Positions 22,564 through 53,432 of a stretch of DNA of 64,000 nucleotides are shown piece after piece. Position numbers and translations under genes: made by a program. The notes beneath the pieces are model-generated. The model was not told the origin of the DNA and did not search any database. It saw nothing but the letters and a program-made list of their open reading frames with translations. This DNA comes from an uncultured archaeon (GTDB lineage Archaea; Iainarchaeota; Iainarchaeia; Iainarchaeales; VGJJ01): assembly GCA_964372665.1 (NCBI GenBank), contig CAYJRE010000001.1, positions 5,941 through 69,940 of the forward strand, written 5' to 3'. The stretch's first letter is position 1, and each line of letters begins with the position of its first letter.

Positions 22564-22615
22564 TCATGTTTTGTATTGTTTTAAGGGTTTGTTTGGGAGG
22601 GGTTTCATTTGTGGA

Positions 22616-28268: not shown

Positions 28269-28700
28269 TTAATCCTTGGGATTGAATGACAAGGCTTCGG
28301 GTAGTTTAGCATGGGTAAAGTACTCTATTTTTTTTCCTATTTCGAAGGCTCTTTTCTTGGATATGGCAAACGCTTTTCCGGTCGTGTGTAAATCCTCTTT
28401 TCGTAAAAATAACCACCCTCTGTTGGGAACCTTCCACGCAATCAACAATTCCGCGCCGGCCATTCGGCACCATTTTTCCAGATCGTTCATCTGCAATTGC
28501 GAAATGTTCAGGTTTTTGGCTTTCCAGGCCTTGCATTCGAATGCGTAAATCTTTCCATTGCGCAACGCGATCGCGTCCGGCGTGGGGATCGTGTTTTTTC
28601 CTTTTCCGCTGCCAGCGGCGCGACAGACGGCCATTCCATTCATGTATAACAATGCCAACAGTTCCCGTTCCGCGCTCGCCCCCTTGTTGTAGTGTGTCAT
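28269..28700 (-). CDS. hjc: Holliday junction resolvase Hjc
   Basis: ERELLALLYMNGMAVCRAAGSGK...DAIALRNGKIYAFECKA is the Hjc fold pattern with catalytic Asp and ExK. The track ORF extends to 28844. Start set at the internal Met. Confidence 0.65.
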   Translation of the reverse strand: MTHYNKGASAERELLALLYMNGMAVCRAAGSGKGKNTIPTPDAIALRNGKIYAFECKAWKAKNLNISQLQMNDLEKWCRMAGAELLIAWKVPNRGWLFLRKEDLHTTGKAFAISKKRAFEIGKKIEYFTHAKLPEALSFNPKD

Positions 28701-28875
28701 GCTTCCCAAGACCCGCAAAAACCACGAAAAGGGCCTATTTAATCCTGTTTTTTTTCTGCGTTTGCCGTTGGTTTGAGCTTTTGATTTATAAAAGAGTCGG
28801 CTCATAATAGGTTTGAAGAGTCCGTTTTTCGGGCTTTTGTTCAAGATTTCACGCTTAAACTTTTGGTGAATAGGA

Positions 28876-30618
28876 ATGCGGGATTCTCCTCCTTTGCGGA
28901 TGGAAATCGCCGTTCATCCGCGCAAACCATTCTTTGGTTTCACGAAAAAAGACGCGAATGGATTATGGCACCTGAACGTGCGTTCCTCGCCTCACCAAAA
29001 CAAAGCCAATGCGGAAATTGAAACGGAATGCAAACGCCTATTCAGGGCAGATGTAAAACTAATCAAGGGGCATTCCTCTTCCAAAGAAGTGTTGGAAGCC
29101 GCATTGGATCGTGAAACGCTTGAGCAACTGATTCTCGAAAACGTCGATTCGTTCAAAAAACAAAAACAAATGCAAAAGCAAATGCAAATATTGCATTGCA
29201 AAAACAAAAAAGAGTTGATACGAAATATGGCAAAGACATATGTGGACGCGGTCAAATACATGATTCGCATTCATTTTGAGATCAAAGGAATCGTAGACAA
29301 GCCCGATATTGTGGGAGCGGTGTTTGGTCAGTCGGAAGGGCTGCTTGGAGAAGAGATGGATTTGCGCGAGCTTCAAAAGAAAGGTCGCGTGGGTCGCATT
29401 GAAGTGAATGTGCGACAAGAAGGGGGAAATACGGTGGGAGAAATAATGGTTCCCACTTCCATGGATATGGCTGAAACGAGTGTATTGGCCGCCGCGATTG
29501 AAACCGTGGATAAGGTGGGTCCGTGCGAGTCCCGGTTTACTACGAAAAGCATTGAGGATGTGCGCCAAAACAAGCGCGCTGAGATTGCGAAACGGGCAAA
29601 AGAGCTTCTCGCGCGCTTGAAGATGGAGCAGAGCCCCGAAATAGACACGCTCACGGAAGAGATTCGGGCAGATGTGCGGGCGGGAAACCTGATCGAGTAC
29701 GGTCGTGATCATTTGCCCGCGGGTCCGGAAGTGGATTCCTCGGATGAAGTGATTGTTGTGGAAGGGAGGGCGGATGTTGTCAACCTCCTCAAGCATGGCA
29801 TCAAGAATGTGATTGGAATGGGCGGTTCCCGAATTTCAGGGGACATCATCAACTTGTCACGGAGGAAAACAATCGTGTTATTCGTTGATGGCGATCGGGG
29901 TGGAGAATTGAATGCGCGCAAATTGCATCAGATTGCTAACGTGCAATTCGTAGCGGTTGCGCCCGATGGAAAAGAGGTGGAAGAGCTTCCCCAAAAGGAA
30001 ATCATTCAATCCTTGCGGCGAAGGGTTCCTGTTCCGGAATTTCTTTCCTCGATTGGCGTTTCCGAACAGGAGTCGGGGAGAGGGATGCGTTTTCGTGCCG
30101 CTCGAGTGGGAATGCCTCGACCGTTTGAGCGTTCCCCACAAGGCATGCTCTCGTTTGGTCGGGGTCGGGGTCCTCGCCTGCCGCGCGAGGCCTTTTCGAG
30201 CATGACTGGAAACAGGGACCGCGGAATGATGATTCATAAGCGATTTGGGGTGGGGGGTGCTCCGGGTCGCATTTCTCCGTTTGGGGATAAAGCCTTGCCC
30301 ACGTTTGAGGCGCCGGTCGAGACCGCTGTTTTGGATTCACCCGAAAATGCCTCTGAATACGCTTCGTTTTTGGAGCGAGTGAAAGGAAAGAAGCAGGCCT
30401 TGTTTTTGGATGCCGATAAGAAGGAGATTGACCTTGTTCCAGTCAAGGATATGGTTTCTAAATTAAAGGACGCCAAGTCTGTTCATACGATTGTATGCGA
30501 TGGCATTATTACGAAGCGTTTGATTGATGCCGCTGCCAAGGCCGATGTGCAACTGGTCGTGGGAATCAAGCGGGGAAAGACTGGAGAAAGTAAAGTAAAA
30601 ACGTTGGTGGTGGGGTGA
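28876..30618 (+). CDS. dnaG: DUF167 (YggU/UPF0235)-like N-terminal domain fused in frame to an archaeal DnaG-type TOPRIM primase
   Basis: Residues ~9-90, MEIAVHPRKPFFGF...PHQNKANAEIETECKRLFRADVKLIKGHSSSKEV, match the DUF167 pattern. It continues without a stop into YMIRIHFEIKGIVDKPDIVGAVFGQSEGLLGEEMDLRELQK and the TOPRIM block VIVVEGRADVVNLLKHG...VDGDRGGE. An RG-rich C-terminal tail follows. Confidence 0.7.
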   Translation: MRDSPPLRMEIAVHPRKPFFGFTKKDANGLWHLNVRSSPHQNKANAEIETECKRLFRADVKLIKGHSSSKEVLEAALDRETLEQLILENVDSFKKQKQMQKQMQILHCKNKKELIRNMAKTYVDAVKYMIRIHFEIKGIVDKPDIVGAVFGQSEGLLGEEMDLRELQKKGRVGRIEVNVRQEGGNTVGEIMVPTSMDMAETSVLAAAIETVDKVGPCESRFTTKSIEDVRQNKRAEIAKRAKELLARLKMEQSPEIDTLTEEIRADVRAGNLIEYGRDHLPAGPEVDSSDEVIVVEGRADVVNLLKHGIKNVIGMGGSRISGDIINLSRRKTIVLFVDGDRGGELNARKLHQIANVQFVAVAPDGKEVEELPQKEIIQSLRRRVPVPEFLSSIGVSEQESGRGMRFRAARVGMPRPFERSPQGMLSFGRGRGPRLPREAFSSMTGNRDRGMMIHKRFGVGGAPGRISPFGDKALPTFEAPVETAVLDSPENASEYASFLERVKGKKQALFLDADKKEIDLVPVKDMVSKLKDAKSVHTIVCDGIITKRLIDAAAKADVQLVVGIKRGKTGESKVKTLVVG

Positions 30619-30856: not shown

Positions 30857-31279
30857 TTATCTTTTCCGTTTCCATTTTGGGCTTTTGATGTTTAGTATGC
30901 TTTCTTCGATGGGGACCATGATTCGCCAGCTTCGGTATAATACCATTCCTACGATGAAGGTGCAGACCCAGAAGAACACCATGGCGATTTTTGGGACGAG
31001 TCCGGAAACGATTTGCAAATCGGTTAACCGGTATTGGTTAGCGTGGAGCAATACGCCAAACGCGTAGTAGGCTTGGGTTTGGCAGTCTTGTATTCGTACG
31101 GTTCCGGAATTGGATGCATCGATGCAGGCGTGGACCGCTTTCACATTTTCCCATGAGTCGAGCATGCTGGTGAGGCTTTGCACGAGCATGAGTAATGCGG
31201 CGATCATCAGGAATGCGCCGAATAGCTTGGGCAAGTGAACGTCTCGAGAGCCCAGCCGAAATAACAACACGCGTCGCAT
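30857..31279 (-). CDS. small membrane protein (hypothetical)
   Basis: 140 aa with two or three predicted TM helices. Confidence 0.35.
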   Translation of the reverse strand: MRRVLLFRLGSRDVHLPKLFGAFLMIAALLMLVQSLTSMLDSWENVKAVHACIDASNSGTVRIQDCQTQAYYAFGVLLHANQYRLTDLQIVSGLVPKIAMVFFWVCTFIVGMVLYRSWRIMVPIEESILNIKSPKWKRKR

Positions 31280-31416: not shown

Positions 31417-34400
31417 GTGGGTTATTGCATGGCCAAAGAGGATAGTTCCAAGTCGACGAATCGGGGTCGTGTTTCCAGGTTGGCAGAGGAGATTCCGGCC
31501 CCTTCTCCGAATGAGGATTTGTCCGAGCTCATGCGAAAGATCAATGCGCTGCAGTCCGGCACCGGTTCTTCCTCCCCTAACTTGGATGTCGAAAAGTTGG
31601 CTCATTATGAAATGCGGAAGGAGCCCCTTCCTCCGGAAACCCCTGAGCTTGTTCCAATCGGAGGAAAGGAGGGATTGTCTCCCCCTCCTTCGAGTAAAAC
31701 CCCTCCCTTGGCCACTGAGGAAGCGTATTCGTATTCGCAAGTGGTCCAAGATCTCCAGAAGGTGGGAACTGAAGCCAATGTTTCGACGTTTGAGTCGCGT
31801 ATCGCGGACAAGCCCAAGAAGTTGATTGAAGAATATGGCCAAACTCGGATTTACAAAGTGCAAGGCGAGATTTTATTGTATTACTGGGTTCCCGTCGCCC
31901 GCCCCACGGTTTCCGAGCGTGTCGTCATCAACACCCTAAAGGAAGCTACGACTCGGCTCATCAGCATAACCCCCTATCGCATTCGGGATCCGGAGCAAAA
32001 GAGGAATGTGTACGCGCAACAGGTCTTGGAGATTTTGCGGGCTTCTCCCGAGTTGAAAGTGCCTTCGAGCAAGTTTGGTTTCTATGCGACTGCGGTTGTG
32101 ACCGAGATGGTGGGGTATGGATTGGTGGACTCGTTGATTAAGGACGATAATTTAGAAGAAGTCATGATCATTGGTCCCAATGTCCCGGTGTATGTTTTTC
32201 ACCGCAAATACGATATGATGACTACCAACGTCGAGTTTACGGCGGATAATGAAATTCAGGATTTGATTAATCGGATTGCCCGTGAGATTGGAAGGAGGGT
32301 GGATATTTCTTCTCCTATGTTGGATGCGCGTCTCCCCGATGGTTCGCGTGTGAATGCCACTATCCCCCCCGCTTCCGTTTCAGGCTCCACGCTCACGGTT
32401 CGAAAGTTTCGTGCCGAACCTTTTTCGGTGGTGGATTTGATTCTGAACAAGACGATGAGTGCGGAGGTTGCGGCCTTTTTGTGGTTGTGCGTGGATGGGT
32501 TGTTGGCGCAACCGGCCAACTTATTGATTTCGGGGGGCACTAGCTCTGGAAAAACCACGCTGTTGAACGTGTTGTGTTCCTTTATTCCGCCGATGGAGCG
32601 CGTGATTTCGATTGAAGATACTTCCGAGCTCAATTTGCCGTTGAAGCACTGGATTCGGTTGGAAGGAAGGCCGCCGGGTTTGGAAGGGAAGGGAGAAATT
32701 ACGCTCGATATTCTCACCAAAAACTCGTTGCGGATGCGGCCGGATCGAATCATTGTGGGGGAAGTCCGCCACGATGAGGCCTTTTCGTTGTTCACGGCGA
32801 TGAACACGGGACACGATGGTATGGCTGCGCCGGAAACACTCGTGCAATTCGATGACGGTTCGATCAAACCGATGGGTGCGTTTTGCGAGGACTATTTTTC
32901 AGCGCTCCCCATTATCTCGAAAGGGGATATGGAAGCAGTATACTTACCTGATGATGCGCCGAGCGTGGTGGCGGTAAATAAATTCAATTTGAAGCAGGAA
33001 AAGGCAAAAGTCAAAGCAATTTGGAGAAGAAAGTGCCATAAGTCGTATCGGGTGGTGTTATCTTCGGGTCGGGAGATTAAACTCTCGCACGACCATCCTG
33101 TTTTCCGTTTGAAGGATGGTTTTCTCCAGCAAGTGCAGGCCCGCGAGGTCCGATTAGGCGATTATTTGGGAGCGATCGGTGAATTCGTTATTTCGGGGCA
33201 AGATGCGGACGAACATGCTTCCTATTTCGTGGGGTTGGTGCTGGGAGGCGGCCACCTGCGGAAAGATGTGGTGAGTTTCACGAATAGGAATGAGCGCTTG
33301 CATCGATTGTTTTTGGATTCTGCGAATAAGGCCTTTGGTGTGGTCGGGAAGACCTACCCACGAAAGAACGAGATTTCCGTGTCAATGATTAATTCTGCCT
33401 CTTTTGCAAAGAGTATTCATGAGCATTTTGGTATCCCCTTTGGAAATAAAACCAAGATTTTTGATGTTCCACTAGAAATTGAAAAGTCATCACTCAACTG
33501 TGTTGGTTTCTTTCTCCGGGGAATGTTCGATACCGGTGGGAGCGTTTCTTCGATCCGGAAAAGCATTTGTTTGTCCACCGCAAACCCAAACGTGTTGAGG
33601 AAGGTTCCGTTATTGCTCAAGCTTTTCGGAGTTGAGTCTAGGATTAATGTGCAGCAAAGAGACGGCAGAGGGAATGCGGGCCCTTATTATCGTATTTTCA
33701 TTACGGGAGAGAAAAATTTGCAGGCTTATCATGAAAACATTGGATTTGGTCATTCTGAAAAGCGGGCCAAACTGGTCTCCATTTTAGGAGTAAAATCGAA
33801 TACCAACGTGGACTTGGTACCAGATGTTGGATTGGTCATCCAAAAGGCCCGGAAAGGGTTGGACTTTACCCAAAAAGAGTTGTCGATGAAAGCGGGTCTG
33901 GGCAAAAGCCGATCGATGTTGAATGCGTATGAAGCGGGGTCGCGAAGTCCTTCGCGTGAAACACTAAGGAAGGTGGTGCGGGTTTTGATTGACCGCTTTA
34001 ATGATAAAGCGAGGGAGTTTGGTAGGTACGATTATGGCTTGGCTGATGCCAAGGAATCGGAAGGTCTAAAATCGATTCGTTCGTTGATTACCCACCTTAA
34101 CGCCCTTTCGAATGGTCATATCATATGGGATAGAGTGAAAACGATTACCGTTAATGACGAGGATTCTCTTTATTACGATTTGACGCTTGATACTATCCAC
34201 ACCTTTACCGCGAATGGAGTCGTGATTTCAAATTGTATGGGCACCATTCATGCGAATTCAGCAGAGGAAACGTTGACACGTGTTACCAATCCTCCTATGA
34301 ACGTGCCCGGAGTCATGCTTTCGGGATTGAATTTTGTGATTATCGAAAACCTTTTTCATTCCGCGACCAGGGGTTCTTATAGACGAGTCACGGAGATTGC

Positions 34401-34659
34401 AGAAGTCACCGGTGTTTTAGAAGGAAAGGCGCATACTCAACCTATTTTTTCGTGGGACGCTGTGAAGGATGAATTGGTGCGAAACAATACCCCTATCAAG
34501 TATTTGGATCGGGTGTCCGCTCTTTCGGGGAGAAGTGTTTCGGAAATCGAGATGGAATTTAAAAGGAGAGAGCGATTTTTACAGGGGTTGGTGGACCGCA
34601 ATGTGCGCAGCCTTAAGACCGTTTCCATGTTAGCTGAAGAGTTTGTGGGAGGAGAATGA
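31417..34659 (+). CDS. type IV pilus assembly ATPase (FlaI/TadA family) containing an intein
   Basis: S/P-rich N-terminus, Walker [11 protein letters not shown], Asp box [11 protein letters not shown]. The His box NTGHDG...[11 protein letters not shown] is split by a ~471-aa insertion with LAGLIDADG-like motifs. Confidence 0.8.
32821..34233 (+). mobile_element. intein with LAGLIDADG homing-endonuclease domain inside the pilus ATPase. Position 1 is Met, not the usual nucleophile (Cys/Ser/Thr)
   Basis: Block A-like [23 protein letters not shown] blocks [12 protein letters not shown] and [15 protein letters not shown]. Block [22 protein letters not shown] followed by +1 Cys. The host junction aligns with the intein-free paralog, TGHQG/CLGT. 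Confidence 0.65.
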
Positions 34660-35864
34660 TGCCGGCAGAAGATTTCTCGAGTATTAAATCTCGGATTGAA
34701 GAGAAGAAGCCCACGGACCGGAATGTTTCCTCCGCGAATTCGATGCCGGAGAAGCCTGTTGATCTGTCGGATAAGCAGATTGATTTGATTGTAGAGCGGA
34801 TGAAGCATAAGTACAAGCAGGAGGGGCTAGAGTTTAATGAAGTGGAAGGGCAATTGGGCGAGCTCAAGGATATTATTTCGGGAACCGGTCAGAAAGGCGT
34901 GGAAGTCGGAGTCGATGCCTTGCGGGAGGGGAAAAATGCGTTCATTCGTATTCTGGGTCATTTGTATTTTTCGTTGCATGGTTTTTTTGAGTGGGTGAGC
35001 AAGCGAATCGAGACGTTTCCCCAGATGAAGACCTTGAACTATTATTTGTATTCGGCGAACATGTCGTATTCGTCCAAGCAGTGGGTCGCGATTGTTTCGG
35101 TGGTTTCTGTTCTCGTTTTTATTGCTGTTTTTTCGTTTGGTGAACTTGCTTTTCTTCTGCTTCGTTTCTTTGGTCAGCAACGGGGTCTGACATTGAGCCC
35201 TTTGGTGGTTACTCTTTCGTATGTTCTTCCGGTGATCGTCGCCTTGTTTTTTTCGGTAGCGGCGGTTGTGGTGGGGTTGTTGGTTCCAAAAATGAACGCC
35301 GAGAGGCGCGGGGACGAATGCTCGACCGAGTTGCCTTTTGCATTGCGGCACATGGCCACCGAGTTGCGCGCGGGAATTGGTTTGTATAAGACGATTCAGA
35401 CGATTGCCAAAGCGGATTACGGGGTGTTGTCGGAGGAGTTTACTCGTGCGATTTCAGAGATTGAAGAGGGCACCGACACGAAGGATGCGCTGCGCCACTT
35501 TGCGGCGCGCACGCAGTCTCGCCCCCTCGCAAACGCGTTGCGGCACATTATTCGGGCGTTGCGCACAGGAGGAAATTTGTCAGAGATCATGGGCAGCATC
35601 GCAAGCGATGTGAGTTTTGATTTGCGGATGAAAGTACGCGAATACTCGGAAAAGCTTAACTTTTTCGGTGTCATTTTCATTTTTATGGGAATTGTGGCTC
35701 CTGTTTTTGTGGGGGTGATGGGCGCCATCGTGAATGGGGGGTTGCCGCTGGGTTTTTCCATTCCATTGACTCCCCCCGTGATTATGATTTTTTACTTTCT
35801 GATTATGCCCACACTCTTGGGGGGGTTGGCGTATTATTTGTATGTCACGCAACCCCGGGTGTGA
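34656..35864 (+). CDS. pilus membrane platform protein, single T2SS-F domain (TadB/TadC/FlaJ-like) #1
   Basis: About eight predicted TM segments and a central cytoplasmic T2SSF-type domain ([20 protein letters not shown]...[12 protein letters not shown]). Confidence 0.65.
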
Positions 35865-35886
35865 AGACGATGAAAAGGTGAAAAAT

Positions 35887-36822
35887 ATGGTGGTGTACGA
35901 AAAGAAAACCCTGCTCGAGCAGTACGCATACTACATGCAGCAGGCCAACCTGGACGTTCCCGCATTGTTGTGGGTGACGGGTTCCTTCGTGGCTGCATTG
36001 GCCGTTGGCTTGCTGGTCTTTTTTGGGTTGGTATTGTTGAAGGTCAATGAGCCTTTGCTCGCTTTCCTTGGTTTTGCTATCGTGTTGGATATGATGATCG
36101 GGTATCCCTACATAAAGGGGAAATCGCGTATTGATGCGATCGAGGCAAGTTTGCCGGACGCGTTGAAACAGATGGCGGACACCCTGAAAACGGGTTCCAC
36201 GTACGAGTACGCGTTGCGCGAGGTCGCGTCATCGCAATACGGTCCACTTTCGGACGAAATGAAGAAGGTATTGCGAAAGTTGGAAGAGGGGGAAAATTTT
36301 GAGAACTCGTTAGCATCATTATCCAAGTCGGTTGAATCCAAATTGATTCGGAGAGTGGTTACTATTGTCATTGACACGGTTCGCGCCGGCGCCGCATTAG
36401 CGGACATTTTGGATGACATATCTCAAGATGTTCGGGAGATGAATCGTATTGCCGCGGAACGGAGGACCAAGACTATTTTGCAGGTGATTTTCATGGTGGC
36501 AGCCGGTGTTTTCGTGGCGCCCTTCATTTTTGGCTTGGTCTCAGTCGTCGTTGAGTTTTTGATTAACACCTCTACAAAGACGGGGGCGATTTCGGGGGCA
36601 AGTGCTCAAGCCATTCAGAATGCGCGGGATTTGATTATTTTTTCGGTGAAGGGTTATTTGTTTATTCTAGCCGTGGCCACCGGCGTGATTATGGGTGCCA
36701 TGCGCGACGGTAAGCTATCCAAAAGCCTTTTATATATCCCTTTGCTGCTATTGCTCGCTTATGCGGTGTTCTTCATTTCGCAAGTGTTGGTAGGATCGCT
36801 TGTGGGGTCTGGTAGCCTATGA
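35887..36822 (+). CDS. pilus membrane platform protein, single T2SS-F domain #2
   Basis: Second T2SSF-like domain (ALKQMADTLKTGSTYEYALREVAS...) plus TM segments. Start at the internal Met preceded by GGTGA. Confidence 0.65.
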   Translation: MVVYEKKTLLEQYAYYMQQANLDVPALLWVTGSFVAALAVGLLVFFGLVLLKVNEPLLAFLGFAIVLDMMIGYPYIKGKSRIDAIEASLPDALKQMADTLKTGSTYEYALREVASSQYGPLSDEMKKVLRKLEEGENFENSLASLSKSVESKLIRRVVTIVIDTVRAGAALADILDDISQDVREMNRIAAERRTKTILQVIFMVAAGVFVAPFIFGLVSVVVEFLINTSTKTGAISGASAQAIQNARDLIIFSVKGYLFILAVATGVIMGAMRDGKLSKSLLYIPLLLLLAYAVFFISQVLVGSLVGSGSL

Positions 36823-36986
36823 TGGTAGAAGATAATCACGGCCAAGGTTCCATCGACTTGTTGTTGGTGGTTGGCATCGTGATTGTGCTTGCCACGGTTG
36901 CGGGCTTGATTCTCAAGGGGTTGACTAACACGCTGCAAGGGAATGCGGCGAATTTGACGAACACGCTCATAAATAAAACGAACTAA
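36819..36986 (+). CDS. Flp/DUF361-type type IV pilin (class III signal peptide), 55 aa
   Basis: MMVEDNHGQGSIDLLLVVGIVIVLATVAGLIL. ATGA overlap with the preceding gene. Below the track's length cutoff. Confidence 0.6.
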   Translation: MMVEDNHGQGSIDLLLVVGIVIVLATVAGLILKGLTNTLQGNAANLTNTLINKTN

Positions 36987-37006
36987 CTGTTCGAAGGAGG
37001 GAACGT

Positions 37007-37177
37007 ATGGATAACCGAGGACAAGGAGCCCTGGAGTATTTGTTGTTGATTGGTGGTGCAGTGCTCATTGCCACGATCGTGTTGTTGATCATCATTGGCT
37101 CGTCTCAGACAACCAACGGAATCATCAACCAAAACCTCAACACCTATGTGCACAAGCTCGGCAACAATGTCCCATAA
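37007..37177 (+). CDS. Flp/DUF361-type type IV pilin, 56 aa
   Basis: MDNRGQGALEYLLLIGGAVLIATIVLLIII, a G-x-x-x-E-Y Flp-like motif. GGAGG Shine-Dalgarno-like sequence 6 nt upstream. Confidence 0.65.
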   Translation: MDNRGQGALEYLLLIGGAVLIATIVLLIIIGSSQTTNGIINQNLNTYVHKLGNNVP

Positions 37178-37206
37178 CGGAATCTCTACATTTGATTGGG
37201 ATTATT

Positions 37207-37380
37207 ATGGAGACGCGGGCCCAGGTAGGTTTGGAGTACTTGTTGACAGTGGCGTTTGGAGTGATTCTTGCCACTGTCGCGGCATTGTTAGCCTTGCAAG
37301 TCGTGGGCATTGCGCAGGTTGCGGAGAAAAACATTGAGCAGTATCGCCAGGAAACGGTTTTGAGCTTTTTGGGAGACTAG
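37207..37380 (+). CDS. Flp/DUF361-type type IV pilin, 57 aa
   Basis: METRAQVGLEYLLTVAFGVILATVAALLAL. Internal ATG of track ORF 37192..37380. Confidence 0.6.
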   Translation: METRAQVGLEYLLTVAFGVILATVAALLALQVVGIAQVAEKNIEQYRQETVLSFLGD

Positions 37381-37388
37381 TCTATTCC

Positions 37389-38522
37389 ATGATGTTCCCC
37401 CTGGCCTCTTTCCTTTTTTCATTCGTTGGGCTCGTTTTAGCCACGTATACGGATTTCAGGGACCGCACGATTCCTAATTGGATTTCGGTTGGATTAGGAG
37501 TCATGGGGTTGGGGTTGGCCGCCTTTGAGTACGTACAAACCCAAAATCTATCCAATTTGGTTTTGGTGGTGGGGGTGACGCTCGTTACATATATTGTGGC
37601 GTATTTGTTTTGGCGGTTGGGCGCGTGGTCGGGAGGAGATGTTAAATTGTTCGCGGGTTTGGGAGCGTTGAATCCCGTGAATCCGTTTGTGTTGGGTTCG
37701 TTCTTTTCGGTTTCGTGGATTTGGGGCAATCAGGAATTGTTTCGTCCGAGCATGTTGCCTTTTTTCATGCTGAATTTGTTTATTCTTTCGGTAATCATGC
37801 TTTTGCCCTATACGGCTTTTCTTTCTGTTTCGGTATTGAGAAACAACGAAAGAAGGAACGAGTTCTTCTCAATAACCAAGAAAAGTGTAGTTGAATCGTT
37901 TGCCTACGGCCTCTTGGTTTTGCTTTTCACTCGATTGGTGGAGGGGGTGGGGCTTCCCATTTGGATGATTGTTTTGTTGATGGTCGTTTCCGCGTTTCTT
38001 CCGCGAATGGCACGGATTTTTTTGGTTCTTCTCACTGTCTTGCTTGGTTTTTTTTCCATTGTTTCATTTTCCTCGTTTCCTTTTTTGTTTGCTACCTTTC
38101 TCATTATTGGTCTTATTTTTTCCTGGTACAAGTTTGCGCAGCGTCACGTTTTAACGCGGATAAAAAAAATTTCGGATTTGCAGGAAGGAGACATTGTGGG
38201 AGAGATTTTTCGTGTCCGGGGGGATAAAATCGTGCGCGAGGAACCCGTTTCGTTCAAAAACATTATTAAGGCCGGGCTCCAGCGGGATGTACCGGGGTTG
38301 ATGTCCGTGTTCCATGCCCAAAATGATATCGTCGCGTCACCTCGTCAGGCGGCGGGGTTGTATTCCGAGCAAGTTGCGCGATTGCAGGGGGAAGTGAAAA
38401 AAGGGAGTTTGGAGGACAGGGTGGTGGTGAAGGCCTCCTCCCCCTTTGCGCCGGCCGTATTATTGGCCTATGGGGTATTGAATTTGGTGGGGGATATTCC
38501 TCTCGTGTGGTGGTTTGGGTGA
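37389..38522 (+). CDS. A24-family prepilin peptidase (PibD/FlaK/TadV-like) with long C-terminal extension
   Basis: First catalytic Asp in TYTDFRDRTIPN and second in the conserved GGGDVKLFAGLGA block. About six TM segments plus a ~140-aa soluble C-terminal region. Confidence 0.7.
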   Translation: MMFPLASFLFSFVGLVLATYTDFRDRTIPNWISVGLGVMGLGLAAFEYVQTQNLSNLVLVVGVTLVTYIVAYLFWRLGAWSGGDVKLFAGLGALNPVNPFVLGSFFSVSWIWGNQELFRPSMLPFFMLNLFILSVIMLLPYTAFLSVSVLRNNERRNEFFSITKKSVVESFAYGLLVLLFTRLVEGVGLPIWMIVLLMVVSAFLPRMARIFLVLLTVLLGFFSIVSFSSFPFLFATFLIIGLIFSWYKFAQRHVLTRIKKISDLQEGDIVGEIFRVRGDKIVREEPVSFKNIIKAGLQRDVPGLMSVFHAQNDIVASPRQAAGLYSEQVARLQGEVKKGSLEDRVVVKASSPFAPAVLLAYGVLNLVGDIPLVWWFG

Positions 38523-39076
38523 ATAAGTTTTTTTCTTGTGAGTCGGGACAGGCAAGCATTGAGTTTATCTTAGTCCTCATTTTCATGTTGATTGTAGTCA
38601 CGGGGATTATATTGCCTTTAGGTCAGCGTCTCCAAATGGCGTTGGACGATGTTTCTAAAATTGGTTCGGTTTCGACTGGGTTGAAACGATTGTCTGGAAA
38701 TTTTGATGCGGCTCTGGCAACGAATGGGGATTCGAAACAGTTTTTGGATTTTTTCTTGCCGAAAGGGACGAGTTTGACGTGCGACCCGGTCGCGAAAACC
38801 GTTTCAGTCGATGTTCCAATCCATACTCCCGTGTATAATTTGGATGGAACCGAGATAAGCGAGTGCCAGCCTTATAATACCCCGCCCGCGGATCCGGCCA
38901 TGATTTGTACCAAAACGTATGCGGTTCCAACTAGCGTCACATTCAAATGCCAAGGAAGTTTGCAGAATTCATTTGCGCTTGAGGCGGGCGCGGCAGGTTT
39001 TTCGCAACGTCTCCGGGTCACCGCGAATTACGGCGGTAGCCCCCCCACGTACACAATCAATTTTTCGACGGTCTGA
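38519..39076 (+). CDS. minor pilin / pseudopilin (TadE- or DUF361-like)
   Basis: (GTG)MNKFFSCESGQASIEFILVLIFMLIVVTGIIL is a class III signal peptide. A Cys-containing globular domain follows. Confidence 0.55.
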   Translation: MNKFFSCESGQASIEFILVLIFMLIVVTGIILPLGQRLQMALDDVSKIGSVSTGLKRLSGNFDAALATNGDSKQFLDFFLPKGTSLTCDPVAKTVSVDVPIHTPVYNLDGTEISECQPYNTPPADPAMICTKTYAVPTSVTFKCQGSLQNSFALEAGAAGFSQRLRVTANYGGSPPTYTINFSTV

Positions 39077-39519
39077 TGGTCATGTTCTCGCGTGGACAAA
39101 CCAGCTTGGAGGTTTTGTTGGTGGTGGCTTTTTCTATTTTGCTTTCGCTCGTGATTGGTTTGCCGTATCTGGAAGCGCAGGCCAAGACGAATGCCTCGGT
39201 TAATACCAAACTAGCGATTCTCGTGCTCTTGGAGAATGGACAGAAATTGGGGAAAATTACTCAAATTCAACCAGAAGTTACCTTTTCAGGGGGTTCCCTG
39301 GACTTGAAAATGCTCGTTCACACCAAAGGGGTTTTGGATGGGAATATTGTGAGCACCCCCTCCTGCTTTGAAGTTTGTGACCAAATAGACCCCACCGATT
39401 TTTATGGCACTGTCACCCTGGATTGGACGCACACCCCGACTGGTTTGGGAACCCCCGGGGTAGTGATTTATGACCCATGCGACCCTAATAACTTGGGGAT
39501 ACTCCTTTCGTGCACCTAA
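39076..39519 (+). CDS. minor pilin / pseudopilin
   Basis: MVMFSRGQTSLEVLLVVAFSILLSLVIGL. TGATG overlap with the previous gene. Confidence 0.55.
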   Translation: MVMFSRGQTSLEVLLVVAFSILLSLVIGLPYLEAQAKTNASVNTKLAILVLLENGQKLGKITQIQPEVTFSGGSLDLKMLVHTKGVLDGNIVSTPSCFEVCDQIDPTDFYGTVTLDWTHTPTGLGTPGVVIYDPCDPNNLGILLSCT

Positions 39520-39545
39520 TTTTTTTCCCTAGGTTTTAACCCTTT

Positions 39546-39929
39546 TTGGTGGGGCTTTCCTCCCTTACTATGGTTTTGGATTCGTTTACCCTTAGCCGGA
39601 TTTTTTTTATTTTGATTTTAGGTTTTTTTCTGGAGTGGTATTCAAGTGAAAGTGTTCAGGTGGTTTCATCCGTTCTCGAACTGCGTTCGTTTTCTTCATT
39701 GCCTGTTGCATTTGAGCTAGTGGGTATTGTTTCGAATGTTCATTATTCGGGGGGTGCCCTCGTATTCGAGTTGGAGAAAGAGGGGGTATTGACATGCTAT
39801 TTTCGCCATCCCCCGTCCAACTTGTTTGTTTTCAACCAGGAAATCTTTTTGGTTCGGGGTAGGTTGGAGCAAACTCCCAAGGGGCTGCTCTGCATTGTCG
39901 AGAAGATGGTTTTTTTTCCAGAGGAATAA
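39546..39929 (+). CDS. membrane-anchored OB-fold protein (hypothetical, possibly nucleic-acid binding)
   Basis: N-terminal TM helix, then VGIVSNVHYSGGALVFELEKEGVLTCYF...EIFLVRGRLEQTPKGLLCIVEKM, the alternating-strand pattern of an anticodon-binding-type OB fold. Confidence 0.4.
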   Translation: MVGLSSLTMVLDSFTLSRIFFILILGFFLEWYSSESVQVVSSVLELRSFSSLPVAFELVGIVSNVHYSGGALVFELEKEGVLTCYFRHPPSNLFVFNQEIFLVRGRLEQTPKGLLCIVEKMVFFPEE

Positions 39930-39934
39930 TCCTG

Positions 39935-40903
39935 ATGTTAGCAGCAGTTTTGGTTGGCGGGTTTTTCTCTTTTTTGTTGTTTAAGTCAGGTTTACCGAAT
40001 CTTGTTCCTGTCTTGTTATGGGTTCCCGTTCTTTCTTTTTTGGATGATGGTGGAATCCTTTTGGGAATGATTGGAGGATCGCTTTTTTTTCTTGTGAATC
40101 AAGATCAATCGCCTGGCCCTTTTTCTTTTTTGGATTTGGTGATGGGTTTTGCGGCGGGCTTTGGTGGCCTATTCGTTTTTTCTTTTTTTCCCTTTTCAGG
40201 AGTTTTAGATGCTGTTATTTTCCCTCTTCTAGTGCTCTCTTTTCTTTGGTTGGTTTATTCGACTCGCCACTCTCTTTTAGCATTTTTGGGGGGGAGCGCG
40301 CTCTGTTTGTTGATTGGGTGGTTTGCCTTGCACGTTTGGGTTATTCCGCTCGCGTTGCCAGCCTTGTTGGGTGGTTTTTTCCTTTCCGCAAACGCGGAGT
40401 TTTCCATTTATCGGCCCACTCGTCTTTGGGATCGAGCTCGCGATTCGATTATTGGCGTTTTTTCAGGAGTTTTGCCTGGTTTGGGTCCTGGTCTTGTTGG
40501 TTTGTTTTGGTTTTCTTCTCGGGCGTCTCCTTCGCTTTTGATTGCCAACCTCGTTTTCACGACTGGTTTTGTTTCGTTGTCGGGTCGCATTCGCAGTTTT
40601 GCGGCTGCGGCATTAAATTATCAATCTCTTCCGGATTGGCCGTATGTGCTAGCTTGGCTATTTTTTTCGGTTTTGGTTTCATTTACGTTAAACCAGTTTT
40701 TTTCTAAGCCGTTGGCCATTCTCCCATTGGAAGGGTGGGTGCTTTTGCATGCGTTTTCATTCGTTTGGCTGGGGGGTCATTCTACTCTTTTGTTGTTTTG
40801 CCTTTCGTTTTGCAGCCGTTCGCTCTTGGTCCACCACCAGTTGCCTCTTTCGTTGGGTTTGTTAACGCTTTTTCTTCCTATTTTGTGGTTTTATGGAGGC
40901 TGA
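39935..40903 (+). CDS. polytopic integral membrane protein (~9 TM, Gly/Phe/Leu-rich), unknown function
   Basis: 322 aa, almost entirely hydrophobic. Embedded in the pilus locus. Confidence 0.5.
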   Translation: MLAAVLVGGFFSFLLFKSGLPNLVPVLLWVPVLSFLDDGGILLGMIGGSLFFLVNQDQSPGPFSFLDLVMGFAAGFGGLFVFSFFPFSGVLDAVIFPLLVLSFLWLVYSTRHSLLAFLGGSALCLLIGWFALHVWVIPLALPALLGGFFLSANAEFSIYRPTRLWDRARDSIIGVFSGVLPGLGPGLVGLFWFSSRASPSLLIANLVFTTGFVSLSGRIRSFAAAALNYQSLPDWPYVLAWLFFSVLVSFTLNQFFSKPLAILPLEGWVLLHAFSFVWLGGHSTLLLFCLSFCSRSLLVHHQLPLSLGLLTLFLPILWFYGG

Positions 40904-40917
40904 CTTATATTTTTTCT

Positions 40918-41316
40918 ATGGTTTTATTGAAGCGCATGCCCGATTCTTGGAAAATCAAGCGGAGTCTTTTGTCGGATTTGATGAGCGCGGCTCGAAAAGT
41001 TTATCCGGATGAGTTTATTGCGATGCTGGGGGTTTCCACCCCCCTATCCATGGTGTTGTCAGAGATGGTTGTTTTTCCAGCTGAGTTCGGGAAGACACAC
41101 TCTCAATTGCGATGGGACTTGGTGCCGTTTGATCCATTGATTGTTGGGAGTGTTCATTCGCATCCTTCGCATTCGGCTTCTCCTTCTTCAGCCGATTTGA
41201 ATGCTTTTTCTCGAATGGGGAAAATTCATTTGATTCTGGCTTACCCTTTTTCGTTAGCGAGTTTTCGTGCGTATTCCGTGAGAGGAAAGTTGGTTTCTAT
41301 TGAAATCGTGCCTTGA
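40918..41316 (+). CDS. JAMM/MPN+ metalloprotease
   Basis: E...HSHPSHSASPSSAD is an HxHx7Sx2D JAMM motif. Internal Met of track ORF 40735..41316. Confidence 0.6.
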   Translation: MVLLKRMPDSWKIKRSLLSDLMSAARKVYPDEFIAMLGVSTPLSMVLSEMVVFPAEFGKTHSQLRWDLVPFDPLIVGSVHSHPSHSASPSSADLNAFSRMGKIHLILAYPFSLASFRAYSVRGKLVSIEIVP

Positions 41317-41640
41317 TTTGGTTTGTTTTTACGCAGCAATTAAAAACGATGAATGGGTGGCCATACCATGCGTTTACCTTTTGAAAACAAAGGCCTATTT
41401 GGGGATTCGCGGAGTGAACCCCCACGCATAGTCCGCCCGGCCGGCCGCAGGTTCAGCGGCCGAGGGCAGTCGGCCAACCTTTTTCAGGGAAAAAGCTTGA
41501 CCAAAAAGCCCTACTTTGGGATTTGTTTTGGGCAAATCCCCGATAGTAGTGCCGCGCAGCGGTCCGCGAACCTTTTGGGAAAAGGTTCATCAAAAACCGG
41601 TGCGGCCGGACTGAACCGGCCCGAAACTGGCCGAGGGCAG

Positions 41641-42150
41641 ATGGCGATTGATTTGGTTTTCGCGTTGATTTTGATTCTTTTGGCTTTGCAGGGTTTTTCG
41701 AGCGTGATGACTCACTTTCAGGATGTGCAAAAAGAGATTAGCCTTCGTCAACAACTCCGGGAAAACACGCGTGTGAGCGCTATTTTTATTCAGGTTTCCA
41801 ACCTCTATTTTCATCGTCCTTTCGATTACATTACTGAATATCTTACTCAGAACCCTGCCTCTGACGGTAAGCGCCTTTCGATTCAAACAGGCTGGTTTTC
41901 CAGGGCGACGGGAACGATTCCCTTGAATCCAGTTCGCTTTGTGGAAACCCCTCAAGGGTTTGATTGCAACATTTGGTCGGATTTGCAAGATGCGAATCTG
42001 CTTTTCTTCACTATTTTTTCTAGCGATTCTGGCCTTAGCAAGGATGTGAATGTGTCGCGTCGATTGACGGTGGTTTCCAATTACGATGATAATCACCTGG
42101 TTTTGTTTGATTCGTGCGGCGGCCCCTTTCACATTCGGGGGAAACCATGA
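41641..42150 (+). CDS. pilin-like protein. The true start probably lies upstream (no ATG/GTG/TTG in frame).
   Basis: ...TGRGQMAIDLVFALILILLALQGF. The RGQ + hydrophobic helix is a class III signal but sits 5' of the first in-frame Met. Track ORF begins at 41353. Confidence 0.45.
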   Translation: MAIDLVFALILILLALQGFSSVMTHFQDVQKEISLRQQLRENTRVSAIFIQVSNLYFHRPFDYITEYLTQNPASDGKRLSIQTGWFSRATGTIPLNPVRFVETPQGFDCNIWSDLQDANLLFFTIFSSDSGLSKDVNVSRRLTVVSNYDDNHLVLFDSCGGPFHIRGKP

Positions 42151-42845
42151 TGGATGCGAGGGGCCAATTGTGGTCGTTAGATGTGGTGCTCGCGGCTGTT
42201 GTTTTTACGTTGGCGATTGGTCTCATTATTAGCCAATCGGAATTGGCCACGTATTATGGTCAGCAAGACCGCTCGACTCGCGCGCTATGGATTTATGCTT
42301 TGTTGGCCTCGAATGGGGTGACGAGCAAGGCCGAGATTACGATACCTCAAATTTACCCGTTGTGCGTGGCGGACATTAATCAGGTGGGCGGGGGGCCGTT
42401 TGTATCCGTTGCTTGTCCGTTTGTCCAAGGTTCCCCGACGATCGTTACGGTGGCGGAAAACGTACGTTGCGGCCCCAATCAAGAGCATATTGTCGAAACA
42501 CAGCCAGTTGTGGTAACATTTCTTCGTCCGTGGGGTTGGTCGTTCGATAATGAGCTTTCGTGGATGGAGAATTGCATTATTAGTCGAGAGTCTCGTCCCC
42601 GCCCGCAGGTTTTTGGAATAACGGATGATTTTGGTTTAGATATGAATGCGGAAATTTATCCGAGTGGGTGGCTTCGCCTTGTTGGGTTTCCTCCGCCAAT
42701 CGGCAAGCAGTATTTTTCGTTTACGCGCAAGATGATTGTGTTCGCGGACCATAATTGGACAGGGGCCTGGATTTATCGTCAATGCATGGATGGGAATTGT
42801 GGTCTTTATTTGACGGATATGAATGTCACCGTGTGGAGGCCATGA
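42147..42845 (+). CDS. pilin-like protein (class III signal peptide)
   Basis: MMDARGQLWSLDVVLAAVVFTLAIGLII. ATGA overlap with the upstream gene. Confidence 0.55.
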   Translation: MMDARGQLWSLDVVLAAVVFTLAIGLIISQSELATYYGQQDRSTRALWIYALLASNGVTSKAEITIPQIYPLCVADINQVGGGPFVSVACPFVQGSPTIVTVAENVRCGPNQEHIVETQPVVVTFLRPWGWSFDNELSWMENCIISRESRPRPQVFGITDDFGLDMNAEIYPSGWLRLVGFPPPIGKQYFSFTRKMIVFADHNWTGAWIYRQCMDGNCGLYLTDMNVTVWRP

Positions 42846-42846
42846 G

Positions 42847-43185
42847 ATGCGCGGGTTTGTTTTTACCATCGATATGCTTTACGGTGCTCTCGCCGCGCTG
42901 TTGCTACTGTCTCTTTTTTCGCAGGCGTTTCAACACCCCCCCATTTCAAAGTATACCCTGTTGCAAATCCAAGCCAAGGACAAAGTCATCGAGTGGTTTT
43001 ACACGAGTCCGACAACCGTTTCTCTTCCCCAATGCGAGCAACCCAATCCGCCCGCCCCTCCTATTTGCCCGGATAAGGCGTTTTCGTGCGATTTTGGTTT
43101 TCGTCCCAAAGTAACAACGACTTTTCTTGATCCGACTCTTTCAAGCAGTTGGGTATACCAGGTCCAATGTGCGGTGGAACCATGA
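42847..43185 (+). CDS. pilin-like protein
   Basis: MRGFVFTIDMLYGALAALLLLSLF. A Cys-rich C-terminal domain. Confidence 0.5.
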   Translation: MRGFVFTIDMLYGALAALLLLSLFSQAFQHPPISKYTLLQIQAKDKVIEWFYTSPTTVSLPQCEQPNPPAPPICPDKAFSCDFGFRPKVTTTFLDPTLSSSWVYQVQCAVEP

Positions 43186-43823
43186 ATCGCGGATTTTTTT
43201 CTGTTTTTGTGGCGACGTTCGCCATTGTTTTCCTTATTGGGTTAACGTACACGCAGTCCTCTCGTTTTCCCACTGAATCCACGGAGGAGCGAATATTGGT
43301 TTTGCAGCAACAGTTGTCGAAAGAGTGGTTTATGGCGCGCAATGCGTATGTTAATTTTTCTTCGGATGCCATTTTCGAACAGGTGGCCTCCAATAATCCG
43401 AACAGCTCGGGAGATGCGGATTGTGATCCTGCATGGGTTGATCCTGCGGTTGATTTTGGTCCTTCGGTCCAATCGTACTGGGACTCAGTGTATGGTTACC
43501 TCCGGACTAATTATGGGGTGGATTGTCGAGCGGTCTTGGATGTGGATGTGCACAACAAACTCGAATCCACCAATCTTTCGGGGCCAGAGACAGTGACGAA
43601 TGGGTCTCGTGCGTATGCTCGGTTAACCTGCTTGAAGAATGGGGGGGGCATCGATTTGAATTTGACGCACCCCTTCGTGATCAAAAAGAAAATGGAAATA
43701 TCTTTGAATACTGGCGTTCAATGCGATGTCAACGTTTTCGATATAATGGGGGATATTCCTCAATTAGGTGTTTTTCCTCCGGTTCCCTATAAGGAATTGG
43801 ATGTGAATCAGGCATTCCCGTAA
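43182..43823 (+). CDS. pilin-like protein
   Basis: MNRGFFSVFVATFAIVFLIGL. ATGA overlap with the upstream gene. Confidence 0.5.
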   Translation: MNRGFFSVFVATFAIVFLIGLTYTQSSRFPTESTEERILVLQQQLSKEWFMARNAYVNFSSDAIFEQVASNNPNSSGDADCDPAWVDPAVDFGPSVQSYWDSVYGYLRTNYGVDCRAVLDVDVHNKLESTNLSGPETVTNGSRAYARLTCLKNGGGIDLNLTHPFVIKKKMEISLNTGVQCDVNVFDIMGDIPQLGVFPPVPYKELDVNQAFP

Positions 43824-44619
43824 AGCTTTTCACGATTTTTGCCACACCGCTCCCGTACTGCATGGCTTTTTTGGGGGCTTGGATGATTTCCTTATCAACG
43901 CGCATTTTTTCACCCAACGTGCGTAAGGCCGCTTTTCGGAGGTGGCCATATTTTCCTTGCAAGTTTTGGATGGCTGGGATTTGGAGGGCGCGTCGGCTAA
44001 ACTCAGGGTTCAAATAAGGGGCTTGGAGGGTGATTCCATAGTATTTTCCGCATTTTTTTTCTCGCTTAACATCGTGTTCTTCCACATTTTCCACTTTTTT
44101 GGCGCGCAATCGTTCGCATTCGATTGGTTTGTCGCGACATTTCTCGAATGAGGCGTACCCGCAAAACAATTCATCGGCCCCTGACCCAACAAACACGGTT
44201 TTGATTCCGTTTTCCTTGGCTAGTTTTGCCACGGCCAAATTAACCACTCCAATCGTTTGTTGCAAATGGTCCTTTGTTTTCAATATTTTTCCGGCGGTTT
44301 CGTAGTTTGAAACGATTTCGTTTTCCTTCAACTCTTTTTTGAGTATTTTCATTTTCCATTTTTTGGCAAGATGAATGGCGCGATCGAAATCCGTGCTTCC
44401 CGGGACTCCTACCACTAATAAGGCCGCTTTAGGAGAATATTTTTTGGTGCTGAAGGCCAATATGCCGGAATCCAATCCTCCGGAGAATGCAATCCCTATG
44501 CCCTGATTTTCTGGGATGGCCTTTCGAACAGCTCCCTCAAGACTCTCTTGAAGCCCCCTGTAGTCTATTTTTCGTTCTGCTTCCCCTTCCGATTGGGAAA
44601 CCCTTGTAATGGAACCCAT
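43729..44619 (-). CDS. asparagine-synthetase-type PP-loop ATP pyrophosphatase (synthetase domain only)
   Basis: PP-loop AFSGGLDSG and GSGADELFCGY (AsnB C-domain motif). No glutaminase domain. Confidence 0.65.
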   Translation of the reverse strand: MGSITRVSQSEGEAERKIDYRGLQESLEGAVRKAIPENQGIGIAFSGGLDSGILAFSTKKYSPKAALLVVGVPGSTDFDRAIHLAKKWKMKILKKELKENEIVSNYETAGKILKTKDHLQQTIGVVNLAVAKLAKENGIKTVFVGSGADELFCGYASFEKCRDKPIECERLRAKKVENVEEHDVKREKKCGKYYGITLQAPYLNPEFSRRALQIPAIQNLQGKYGHLRKAALRTLGEKMRVDKEIIQAPKKAMQYGSGVAKIVKSFTGMPDSHPIPYREPEEKHLIEEYPPLYRKR

Positions 44620-53249: not shown

Positions 53250-53432
53250 ATGCGTTGGCATCTAGAAGAATCCCGTGCCCAAATTTCGATTGAAATGATT
53301 TTGGTCATGGCTGCGGTCGTGGCAGTTGTTTTGTTATTGGTCACGCAGCTCCAATCCTCGAGCGAGAAGGGCGTCAACAAACTCAAGCAGAAAACCGATG
53401 ACATTTTTCGCGAAATCGAGGAAATCGATTGA
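53250..53432 (+). CDS. DUF361-type pilin (class III signal peptide), 60 aa
   Basis: MRWHLEESRAQISIEMILVMAAVVAVVLLLV. Confidence 0.55.
   Translation: MRWHLEESRAQISIEMILVMAAVVAVVLLLVTQLQSSSEKGVNKLKQKTDDIFREIEEID

Follow-up and report, generated by a model that had tools for sequence, protein, structure and literature searches.

Epd-like pili of archaea and Tad pili of bacteria share two contiguous platform genes, which encode one T2SSF domain each and stem from gene fission, as well as very short pilins, and the Tad system has been traced to a transfer of an Epd-like system out of Archaea (Denise et al. 2019, PMC6668835). Two TadC-like genes were also described for archaeal loci of clades 1 and 2 (Makarova et al. 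2016, PMC4858521), islands with TadB and TadC genes and unrecognisable pilins were reported from DPANN genomes (Makarova et al. 2019, PMC6393860), and a 2026 preprint places 'system 1', which has two platform genes, in methanogens, Thermococcales and DPANN (bioRxiv 10.64898/2026.04.22.720090). In this study we analysed a 64-kb stretch of DNA (the window; all positions refer to it) from a genome of the Iainarchaeota (Diapherotrites, DPANN), which carries a predicted type IV pilus locus of this kind. The 12.4-kb locus (31417-43823) consists of 16 tightly packed co-directional open reading frames (ORFs) on the + strand, with the gene for the pilus ATPase first, and the same locus is present with identical sequence in three independent public assemblies.

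A second line of earlier work concerns natural transformation. In Methanococcus maripaludis the adjacent genes MMJJ_13020, encoding an OB-fold protein with a single transmembrane (TM) segment, and MMJJ_13030, whose TctA-like product has 11 TM segments, are each essential for transformation; the epd pilus genes, which made up most of the other hits in the transposon screen of Fonseca and co-workers, are likewise essential (PMC10133366). A TctA-like homologue is essential for transformation of Methanoculleus thermophilus as well, and since archaea are without ComEC, the authors proposed the TctA-like protein as the archaeal DNA transporter (PMC10133366). The only candidates for the step at which DNA crosses the membrane in archaeal transformation come from this one Methanococcus screen, and in M. 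maripaludis the OB/TctA pair is unlinked to the pilus genes (PMC10133366).

An OB/TctA-like gene pair inside the pilus operon

Relatives of the locus were collected by a scan with the first platform protein (T2SSF-1), keeping one genome per species, and the window's proteins were mapped onto the resulting 31 related loci by tblastn and hidden Markov model (HMM) searches. All named relatives belong to the Iainarchaeota/Diapherotrites (DPANN), including Ca. Iainarchaeum andersonii and AR10, and the gene order was found to be phylum-wide: ATPase, T2SSF, T2SSF, 2-4 short pilins, A24 prepilin peptidase, two minor pilins, a single-TM OB protein, a multi-TM protein, a JAB (JAMM) protein and four pilin-like proteins. 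For the OB and TctA genes, 23 loci were informative, each with at least ~2.3 kb of sequence after the peptidase gene. A TctA or TctA-like gene was present ~2 kb downstream of the peptidase gene in all of these (23/23), and it was preceded by an OB gene in 22/23. In two rearranged loci (L024 and L028) the OB/TctA pair has remained with the peptidase gene, next to the ATPase operon. A literature search for TctA-like genes in archaeal pilus loci, or for a link between TctA and JAMM, brought up only the M. maripaludis paper and its preprint, neither of which reports a TctA-like gene in a pilus locus.

The family assignment of the pair depends on the relatives, because the window lies in a subclade whose OB and TctA-like proteins have diverged beyond detection by Pfam. 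For the OB-like protein (119-127 aa), syntenic homologues in more distant Iainarchaeota loci match the PF01336 tRNA_anti-codon OB family with E values from 3e-9 to 1e-6, and the window clade aligns to the distant clade with an hhalign probability of 94.3% (E 1e-7, 71 columns). The 9-TM protein next to it did not reach the gathering score of PF01970 (TctA) and had no other Pfam match. Its syntenic homologues are ~395 aa long, have 9-12 TM segments and match PF01970 at 4e-52 to 3e-38, and the two clades align over 253 columns (hhalign probability 94.4%, E 9e-8). The OB and TctA-like genes of both clades occupy identical syntenic slots. An OB gene directly upstream of a TctA-family gene is thus present at the family level, by way of the relatives and hhalign. 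The original prediction, which had been made from the sequence alone, listed a membrane-anchored OB-fold protein and a 9-TM membrane protein; both identities hold through the homologues, although neither window protein matches Pfam itself, and the likeness to the pair needed for M. maripaludis transformation (PMC10133366) had been missed.

Compared with its syntenic homologues, the TctA-like protein of the window has lost ~75 N-terminal residues, including the invariant motif GxxTGLxPGxHxN, and has kept the second, PGxGP-type motif and other invariant positions. An AlphaFold2 model of it was an all-helical membrane bundle (predicted local distance difference test, pLDDT, 75), with which a structure search found no significant solved relative; the model made from the single OB sequence was unusable (pLDDT 39). 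In the OB proteins the TM helix has K/R residues before it and acidic residues after it, from which an extracellular position of the OB domain is predicted. Homologue searches that started from the 9-TM and JAMM proteins of the window returned close relatives only, and NCBIfam contained no model specific to archaeal proteins of the TctA-like or OB type.

The pair resembles MMJJ_13020/13030 in that the same two families are adjacent and in the same order, first a single-TM OB protein and then a TctA protein of the archaeal type with ~400 aa (9-12 TM in the relatives), and the two pairs may be orthologous. They differ in that the pair studied here is embedded in a pilus operon, and in that the window copies are diverged, without a Pfam match and, for the TctA-like protein, shortened to 322 aa.

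The JAMM gene and other insertions

The gene after the pair encodes a JAMM metalloprotease of the same type as AfJAMM (AF2198), for which the structure has been solved and the function and substrate are unknown (PMC300881). The match to AfJAMM extends over the full length, and the zinc motif E...HSHx7SxxD is intact (PDEF...HSHPSHSASPSSAD) and invariant in our alignment. We considered the JAMM protein as a partner of the TctA-like protein or a core component of the system, and rejected this. In a scan of metagenomes with the JAMM alignment, the link to TctA was confined to Iainarchaeota-type loci; in some loci JAMM, iPGM and the four pilin-like genes are together but TctA is missing, and glycosyltransferase and flippase-like genes lie upstream. 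Archaeoglobus-type JAMM copies, in contrast to the one in the window, sit after an aconitase-family gene. Finally, in L005 and L010 the JAMM gene is gone and the OB and TctA-like genes are kept. Because of this loss and the other neighbours in other archaea, the JAMM gene is probably a passenger rather than a pilus component.

Further genes interrupt the string in relatives. In L016, L018, L021, L023, L026, L035, L037, L046 and L047 the JAB gene is separated from the four pilin-like genes by a gene for phosphoglycerate mutase (iPGM, in some loci GpmA), which is most likely an unrelated passenger too. Between TctA and JAB, a PMT_2 glycosyltransferase gene was found in L033 and an NHL-repeat protein gene in L035, and a DUF2101 membrane protein gene precedes the OB gene in L018 and L037. 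The window is free of all of these insertions (phosphoglycerate mutase, PMT_2, NHL-repeat and DUF2101).

Evidence for and against a role in DNA uptake

The reading that we favour, to which we give slightly less than an even chance, is that the products of the locus are an Epd-like pilus and, coupled to it, a module that binds and imports DNA; the locus would then be an archaeal competence machine. A TadA/CpaF-like ATPase would act on a platform of two one-domain T2SSF proteins, which would stem from the N-terminal and C-terminal halves of a gene split long ago. The class III leaders would be cleaved behind G/A by an EppA-like A24 peptidase, so that Q or F becomes residue +1, and the three short pilins, ~47-52 aa long when mature and essentially a single helix, would form a thin Flp-like fibre with six larger pilin-like proteins as minor or tip subunits. 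The membrane-anchored, outward-facing OB protein, a candidate DNA receptor, and the polytopic TctA-like protein, a candidate DNA channel, would bind DNA and move it across the membrane together with the pilus. They would then be functional analogues of bacterial ComEA and ComEC, in which an outward-facing DNA-binding module and a polytopic membrane protein also act in concert with a type IV pilus. By family the proteins are not related: ComEA has an HhH domain in place of the OB fold, and ComEC a competence domain in place of TctA. No nuclease domain was found.

This reading has to be weighed against a simpler one, in which the locus makes an ordinary Epd-like adhesion pilus, by which the DPANN cell would, for instance, attach to a surface or host, and the OB, TctA-like and JAMM genes are passengers held in place by conserved gene order. 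In M. maripaludis the Epd pilus has a known role in adhesion (PMC6668835, bioRxiv 10.64898/2026.04.22.720090), and the phosphoglycerate mutase, glycosyltransferase and NHL-repeat genes that relatives carry in the same string, the loss of JAMM in two loci and its other neighbours elsewhere, and the synteny of the flanking housekeeping genes also speak for this reading. What passengers would leave unexplained is that the OB/TctA pair stands right after the minor pilins in 23/23 informative loci, that it moves with the pilus genes in L024 and L028, and that the pair and the Epd pilus give one shared phenotype in M. maripaludis (PMC10133366). We consider a mere adhesion pilus unlikely, while still giving it appreciable weight.

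Several further observations count against DNA uptake. The flanking housekeeping genes are syntenic as well, with the DnaG, Asn-synthase-like, AsnC and TopA genes kept in relatives, and housekeeping genes (iPGM/GpmA) also occur within the gene string. The supporting loci come from one phylum with a conserved gene order, so that the adjacency is effectively one evolutionary observation. The OB and TctA-like proteins of the window itself have diverged strongly, with no Pfam match and the first TctA motif lost, and their likeness to MMJJ_13020/13030 is one at the level of families. TctA in bacteria is a carboxylate-transporter family. Moreover, PurD is encoded in the window; purine synthesis thus appears to be retained at least in part, and the organism has no obvious need to scavenge nucleotides.

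In the transformation study, the OB and TctA mutants of M. maripaludis were not examined for pili (PMC10133366), and the pair could hence serve in pilus biogenesis and not as a channel. In that case the two proteins would be structural or biogenesis accessories, for instance a membrane anchor or an alignment complex, and the Methanococcus phenotype would be indirect. It fits this idea that their genes lie within the operon, between minor pilin genes, and that the window copies have changed at about the same pace as the extracellular pilin-like proteins (35-43% identity to relatives, compared with 72-75% for T2SSF). It fits less well that the OB domain of the relatives is of the nucleic-acid-binding PF01336 type, and that the Makarova census of archaeal pilus loci does not contain arCOG04469 (TctA) as a pilus component. 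Altogether, we regard an accessory role as distinctly improbable, and return to the coupling of pilus and DNA import at the end of this text.

Gene content and the split platform

The components named in the original prediction were all found, on the + strand between 31417 and 43823 (Table 1). These are an intein-bearing T2SSE ATPase, two T2SSF proteins, three short pilins, an A24 peptidase, six more class-III-signal proteins and the OB-like, 9-TM and JAMM proteins, and Pfam bears out the T2SSE (8e-38), T2SSF (1e-20 and 7e-19) and A24 (1e-12) assignments. The number of genes had been put at 18, where the ORF listing gives 16. Many of the neighbouring genes had been described as joined by start/stop overlaps of 1-4 nt; such overlaps are indeed seen, with other neighbours spaced instead by gaps of up to 36 nt. 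With a T2SSE/FlaI-type ATPase, a polytopic T2SSF platform and an A24 peptidase with predicted class III substrates, the locus carries the defining parts of the superfamily of type IV filaments (TFF). It had been pointed out that the OB, 9-TM and JAMM proteins are not standard pilus components, and this agrees with our results.

Table 1. Positions of the predicted features of the pilus locus in the 64-kb window.
Feature	Position	Strand	Evidence and remarks
Pilus assembly ATPase (T2SSE/TadA/FlaI family), intein-interrupted	31417..34659	+	Pfam T2SSE 8e-38; likely start ATG 31429
KlbA-type intein, 471 aa, with LAGLIDADG homing endonuclease and HTH_3	32821..34233	+	Boundaries from intein-less homologues
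Platform protein 1, one T2SSF domain, N-terminal half of two-domain FlaJ/UpsF	34656..35864	+	Pfam T2SSF 1.1e-20 at 229-355
Platform protein 2, one T2SSF domain, C-terminal half of FlaJ/UpsF	35887..36822 (alternative start 35842)	+	Pfam T2SSF 7.4e-19, single stretch
Short pilin 1, 55 aa, NHG/QGSIDLLL	36819..36986	+	Class III-like N-terminus; conserved in relatives
Short pilin 2, 56 aa, NRG/QGALEYLLL	37007..37177	+	Pfam Class_IIIsignal 3.6e-8; GGAGG upstream
Short pilin 3, 57 aa, TRA/QVGLEYLL	37207..37380	+	Motif scan; 82-86% identity in close relatives
Prepilin peptidase A24 with C-terminal Arc_PepC	37389..38522	+	Peptidase_A24 1.1e-12, Arc_PepC 3.1e-8
Minor pilin-like protein, ESG/QASIEF	38519..39076	+	Motif scan; position conserved in all relatives
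Minor pilin-like protein, SRG/QTSLEV	39076..39519	+	Motif scan; Class_IIIsignal weak, 0.066
Single-TM protein, diverged OB fold, predicted extracellular	39570..39929	+	No Pfam match; syntenic homologues match PF01336
'9-TM' protein, diverged TctA family, N-terminally shortened, 322 aa	39935..40903	+	Syntenic homologues match PF01970
JAMM/MPN+ metalloprotease, AfJAMM type	40918..41316	+	Prok-JAB 1.8e-11; AfJAMM 1OI0 E 5e-25, full length
Class-III-signal protein, GRG/QMAIDL	41353..42150	+	Motif scan
Class-III-signal protein, ARG/QLWSLD	42147..42845	+	Motif scan; homologues in relatives
Class-III-signal-like protein, MRG/FVFTID	42847..43185	+	Motif scan; homologues in relatives
Class-III-signal-like protein, NRG/FFSVFV	43182..43823	+	Motif scan; homologues in relatives
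Slashes mark the predicted cleavage sites.

The two platform genes each encode exactly one T2SSF domain in Pfam, as had been predicted. Against NCBIfam, platform protein 1 aligned to positions 55-245 of 484 in UpsF and 39-169 of 555 in FlaJ, and platform protein 2 to positions 266-439 of UpsF and 274-554 of FlaJ. This distribution over the N- and C-terminal halves of the two-domain protein is what gene fission predicts. For the second gene (T2SSF-2), a start at 35887 has GGTG upstream and leaves a gap of 22 nt, compared with a 23-nt overlap for the upstream ATG, and 35887 is probably the true start.

Since the genes are adjacent, differ in frame and could overlap by 23 nt if the upstream ATG were used, we asked whether a frameshift or sequencing error had broken one gene at the junction (35842..35886). 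This can be dismissed almost with certainty. The genes are parted by a TGA stop (35862-35864) as well as by their frames, the sequence is identical in the three independent assemblies, and the platform is encoded by two ORFs in every one of the 31 related genomes, with 43-75% identity to those of the window. A T2SSF domain and TM segments are present in both ORFs, and a split is the published norm for the Epd-like class (PMC6668835). The conservation of the gene order and of separate ORFs across the relatives thus argues that the platform split is genuine.

Over-long matches had raised the suspicion of inteins or insertions in T2SSF-1; these proved to be an artefact, as the query also matches the paralogous T2SSF-2. 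A PDB search with both platform proteins found no relative. Assignment to TadB and TadC was weak, with scores against one bacterial tad locus of 79 (platform 1 with TadB), 42 (platform 2 with TadC) and 65 (platform 2 with TadB).

Pilins, prepilin peptidase and pilus class

Pilin-like proteins were sought in all six frames of the window with a class III pattern ([GA] followed by cleavage and Q-x3-[ED], or [KR]G followed by cleavage and F, and then a hydrophobic stretch). The scan gave exactly nine pilin-like ORFs in the locus, so that a predicted class III site is present in nine of nine, and five others elsewhere in the window (four at 53-55.5 kb and an isolated one at 61719). After predicted cleavage the short pilins retain ~47-52 aa and have no globular C-terminal domain, as is characteristic of Epd-like/system 1 pilins. 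They had been likened to bacterial Flp, and the second and third pilins (G/QGALEY and A/QVGLEY) do fit the Flp pattern G/XXXXEY; none of the locus proteins, however, matched Flp_Fap in Pfam at E <= 0.1. TadE scored only 13.7 bits in the locus, with a cut-off of 22.9.

For the first of the four distal class-III-signal genes, the ORF at 41353 runs ~95 codons upstream of the class III motif, and the alignment with homologues does not begin before residue ~93. Close to the motif there are just two in-frame starts, TTG 41575 and ATG 41641, the latter just past the predicted cleavage site, and the true start probably lies downstream of the ORF's beginning, for example at TTG 41575.

The prepilin peptidase had been noted to have a C-terminal extension of ~140 aa. 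Both the A24 domain and the extra region are real, and the extension is the known archaeal Arc_PepC domain. In NCBIfam the EppA model was covered over its full length but weakly (35.7 bits, cut-off 450), and FlaK scored 45 bits. The ATPase scored 270 bits with FlaI and 222 bits with the TadA family, each under the cut-off of its model; against PDB, the spliced extein ranked CpaF (255.7 bits) above afGspE (244.6) and FlaI (200) by score.

By its gene content the locus is of the Epd-like or 'system 1' pilus class, and not a member of bacterial Tad; two adjacent platform genes with a single T2SSF domain each are a mark of the former. It shares with the M. maripaludis Epd pilus (EpdJ/EpdK/EpdL, EppA, EpdA-I; system 1, Makarova clade 1) the two one-domain platform genes, a TadA-like ATPase, an A24 peptidase whose C-terminal domain is archaeal, major pilins that are very short and have Q at +1, and a large number of minor pilin-like proteins. 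The arrangement differs: here all genes form one 12.4-kb string, whereas in M. maripaludis the ATPase/platform genes, the 11-gene epd cluster, the major pilin gene and the OB/TctA pair are at separate places. A second ATPase of the FleN/MinD/FlaH type, frequent but not obligatory in system 1, was not found in the 16 locus genes or the other window ORFs scanned, and Pfam detected no DUF2341 adhesin in the locus.

With bacterial Tad/Flp (Cpa) systems the locus has in common an ATPase gene followed by two one-domain T2SSF genes, ~50-aa mature pilins that fit G/XXXXEY, and CpaF as the best ATPase score. It differs from them in the missing Flp_Fap match, in the TadE score below the cut-off and in its peptidase of the archaeal Arc_PepC type; no secretin RcpA, TadZ or TadD domains were found in the locus with Pfam. 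The description of the locus as an Epd/Tad-like type IV pilus system is accordingly borne out by its domains, its split platform, its short pilins and the CpaF score. The unusual architecture that had been ascribed to it is not, as Epd-like pili are already known in the literature by just this hallmark, two one-domain platform genes with short pilins (PMC6668835). The further suggestion of an archaeal counterpart or ancestor of Tad had the direction right, but it was already in the literature (PMC6668835, PMC4858521, PMC6393860, bioRxiv 10.64898/2026.04.22.720090).

The intein of the pilus ATPase

As had been recognised, the ATPase gene carries an intein: next to T2SSE, Pfam matches Intein_splicing, LAGLIDADG_3 and HTH_3 in its product. 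Intein-less homologues read NTGH(D/Q/E/A)G-(S/C)-MGT(I/V)HAN at the insertion site, and on this basis the intein was placed after GHDG with Cys+1 following (junctions GHDG/MAAPE...VISN/C, site GHDG/...SN/CMGTIHAN). Residue 1 of the intein is therefore Met. The best PDB relative is the KlbA intein of Methanocaldococcus jannaschii MJ0781 (2JMZ, E 2e-10), which we take to be the archetype of class 2 inteins, those without an N-terminal nucleophile. The two have in common the host family, block B SHDHP, the C-terminal SN followed by Cys+1 and the lack of a nucleophile at position 1. They differ in that the present intein has Met at position 1, where KlbA inteins have Ala, and in that it contains LAGLIDADG and HTH domains. 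The class 2 (KlbA-type) features are thus all there: no Cys/Ser/Thr at residue 1, a C-terminal Asn, Cys+1 and a KlbA/Epd-type ATPase as host.

Most relatives have no intein in the pilus ATPase. Among the loci with an intein at the same site (L004, L010, L013, L016, L018, L021, L023 and L026), residue 1 is Cys in six, Ser in L026 and Ala in AR10 (L018). To judge from these residues, the variants look like a natural series across class 1 and class 2 (KlbA-like) chemistry. With Met at residue 1, the intein of the window would require the class 2 route, if it splices, and its excision would activate the ATPase.

A second intein (Intein_splicing, LAGLIDADG_3) is present in the window in a Cdc48/VCP-type AAA ATPase (48350-51997, +).

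Surroundings of the locus

Upstream of the ATPase gene, on the opposite strand, lies a divergently oriented gene for a 140-aa membrane protein without a family match (30857-31279, -), which is found in the same place in close relatives (67-75% identity). At the other end, the 3' end of the last pilin-like gene (43729-43823) overlaps a convergent Asn_synthase-like gene (43729-44619, -) by 95 nt, an overlap that was also called in the independent assembly L001. The surrounding genes are those of archaeal information processing: Rad50, HerA, NurA, Hjc, a DnaG-like Toprim protein, a topoisomerase and Cdc6/Orc1 (these and PurD at 13527-15884, 20992-23758, 28269-30618, 45309-47480, 58107-59444 and 60873-62195).

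Two further regions of the window recall pilus components. A second T2SSE-family ATPase without an intein (6471-8036, -; Pfam T2SSE 4e-40, 228 bits against the profile of the locus ATPase) has no T2SSF gene beside it, and the next gene (5600-6466, -) encodes a secreted or C-terminally anchored protein of 288 aa with no Pfam match. This ATPase could be another motor for the same platform or part of a different system. Five class-III-signal proteins are encoded in a second cluster (53250-53432, +; 53445-53846, +; 53812-54147, -; 54137-54601, -; 54866-55450, -), which adjoins a short M50-family peptidase gene (52431-53003, -); an M50 peptidase, MMJJ_13210, was also found in the M. maripaludis transformation screen (PMC10133366).

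Discussion

The split platform, the short pilins and the resemblance to Tad make this locus a textbook Epd-like system, and they add nothing to the story of the origin of Tad. What stands out is the OB/TctA-like pair inside the pilus operon across a whole archaeal phylum, an arrangement that we did not find in the literature.

The strongest form of our interpretation is that the locus would be a self-contained archaeal competence machine, made up of an Epd/Tad-like pilus, an OB DNA receptor and a TctA-like channel, in which the TctA-like protein would take the place that ComEC has in bacteria, and that the uptake of DNA would be a core function of pili in DPANN. Taken as a whole, this is a more doubtful proposition than the coupling of pilus and DNA import alone, with perhaps one chance in three of holding. 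If true, comparative genomics would lend independent support to TctA-like proteins as the counterpart of ComEC that has long been sought in archaea. Since the linkage is at the operon level and in an unrelated lineage, the idea that the TctA-like protein is either the archaeal DNA translocase or an obligatory pilus partner becomes directly testable. The embedding of the pair in the operon also suggests a function for the pili of DPANN archaea, namely DNA uptake.

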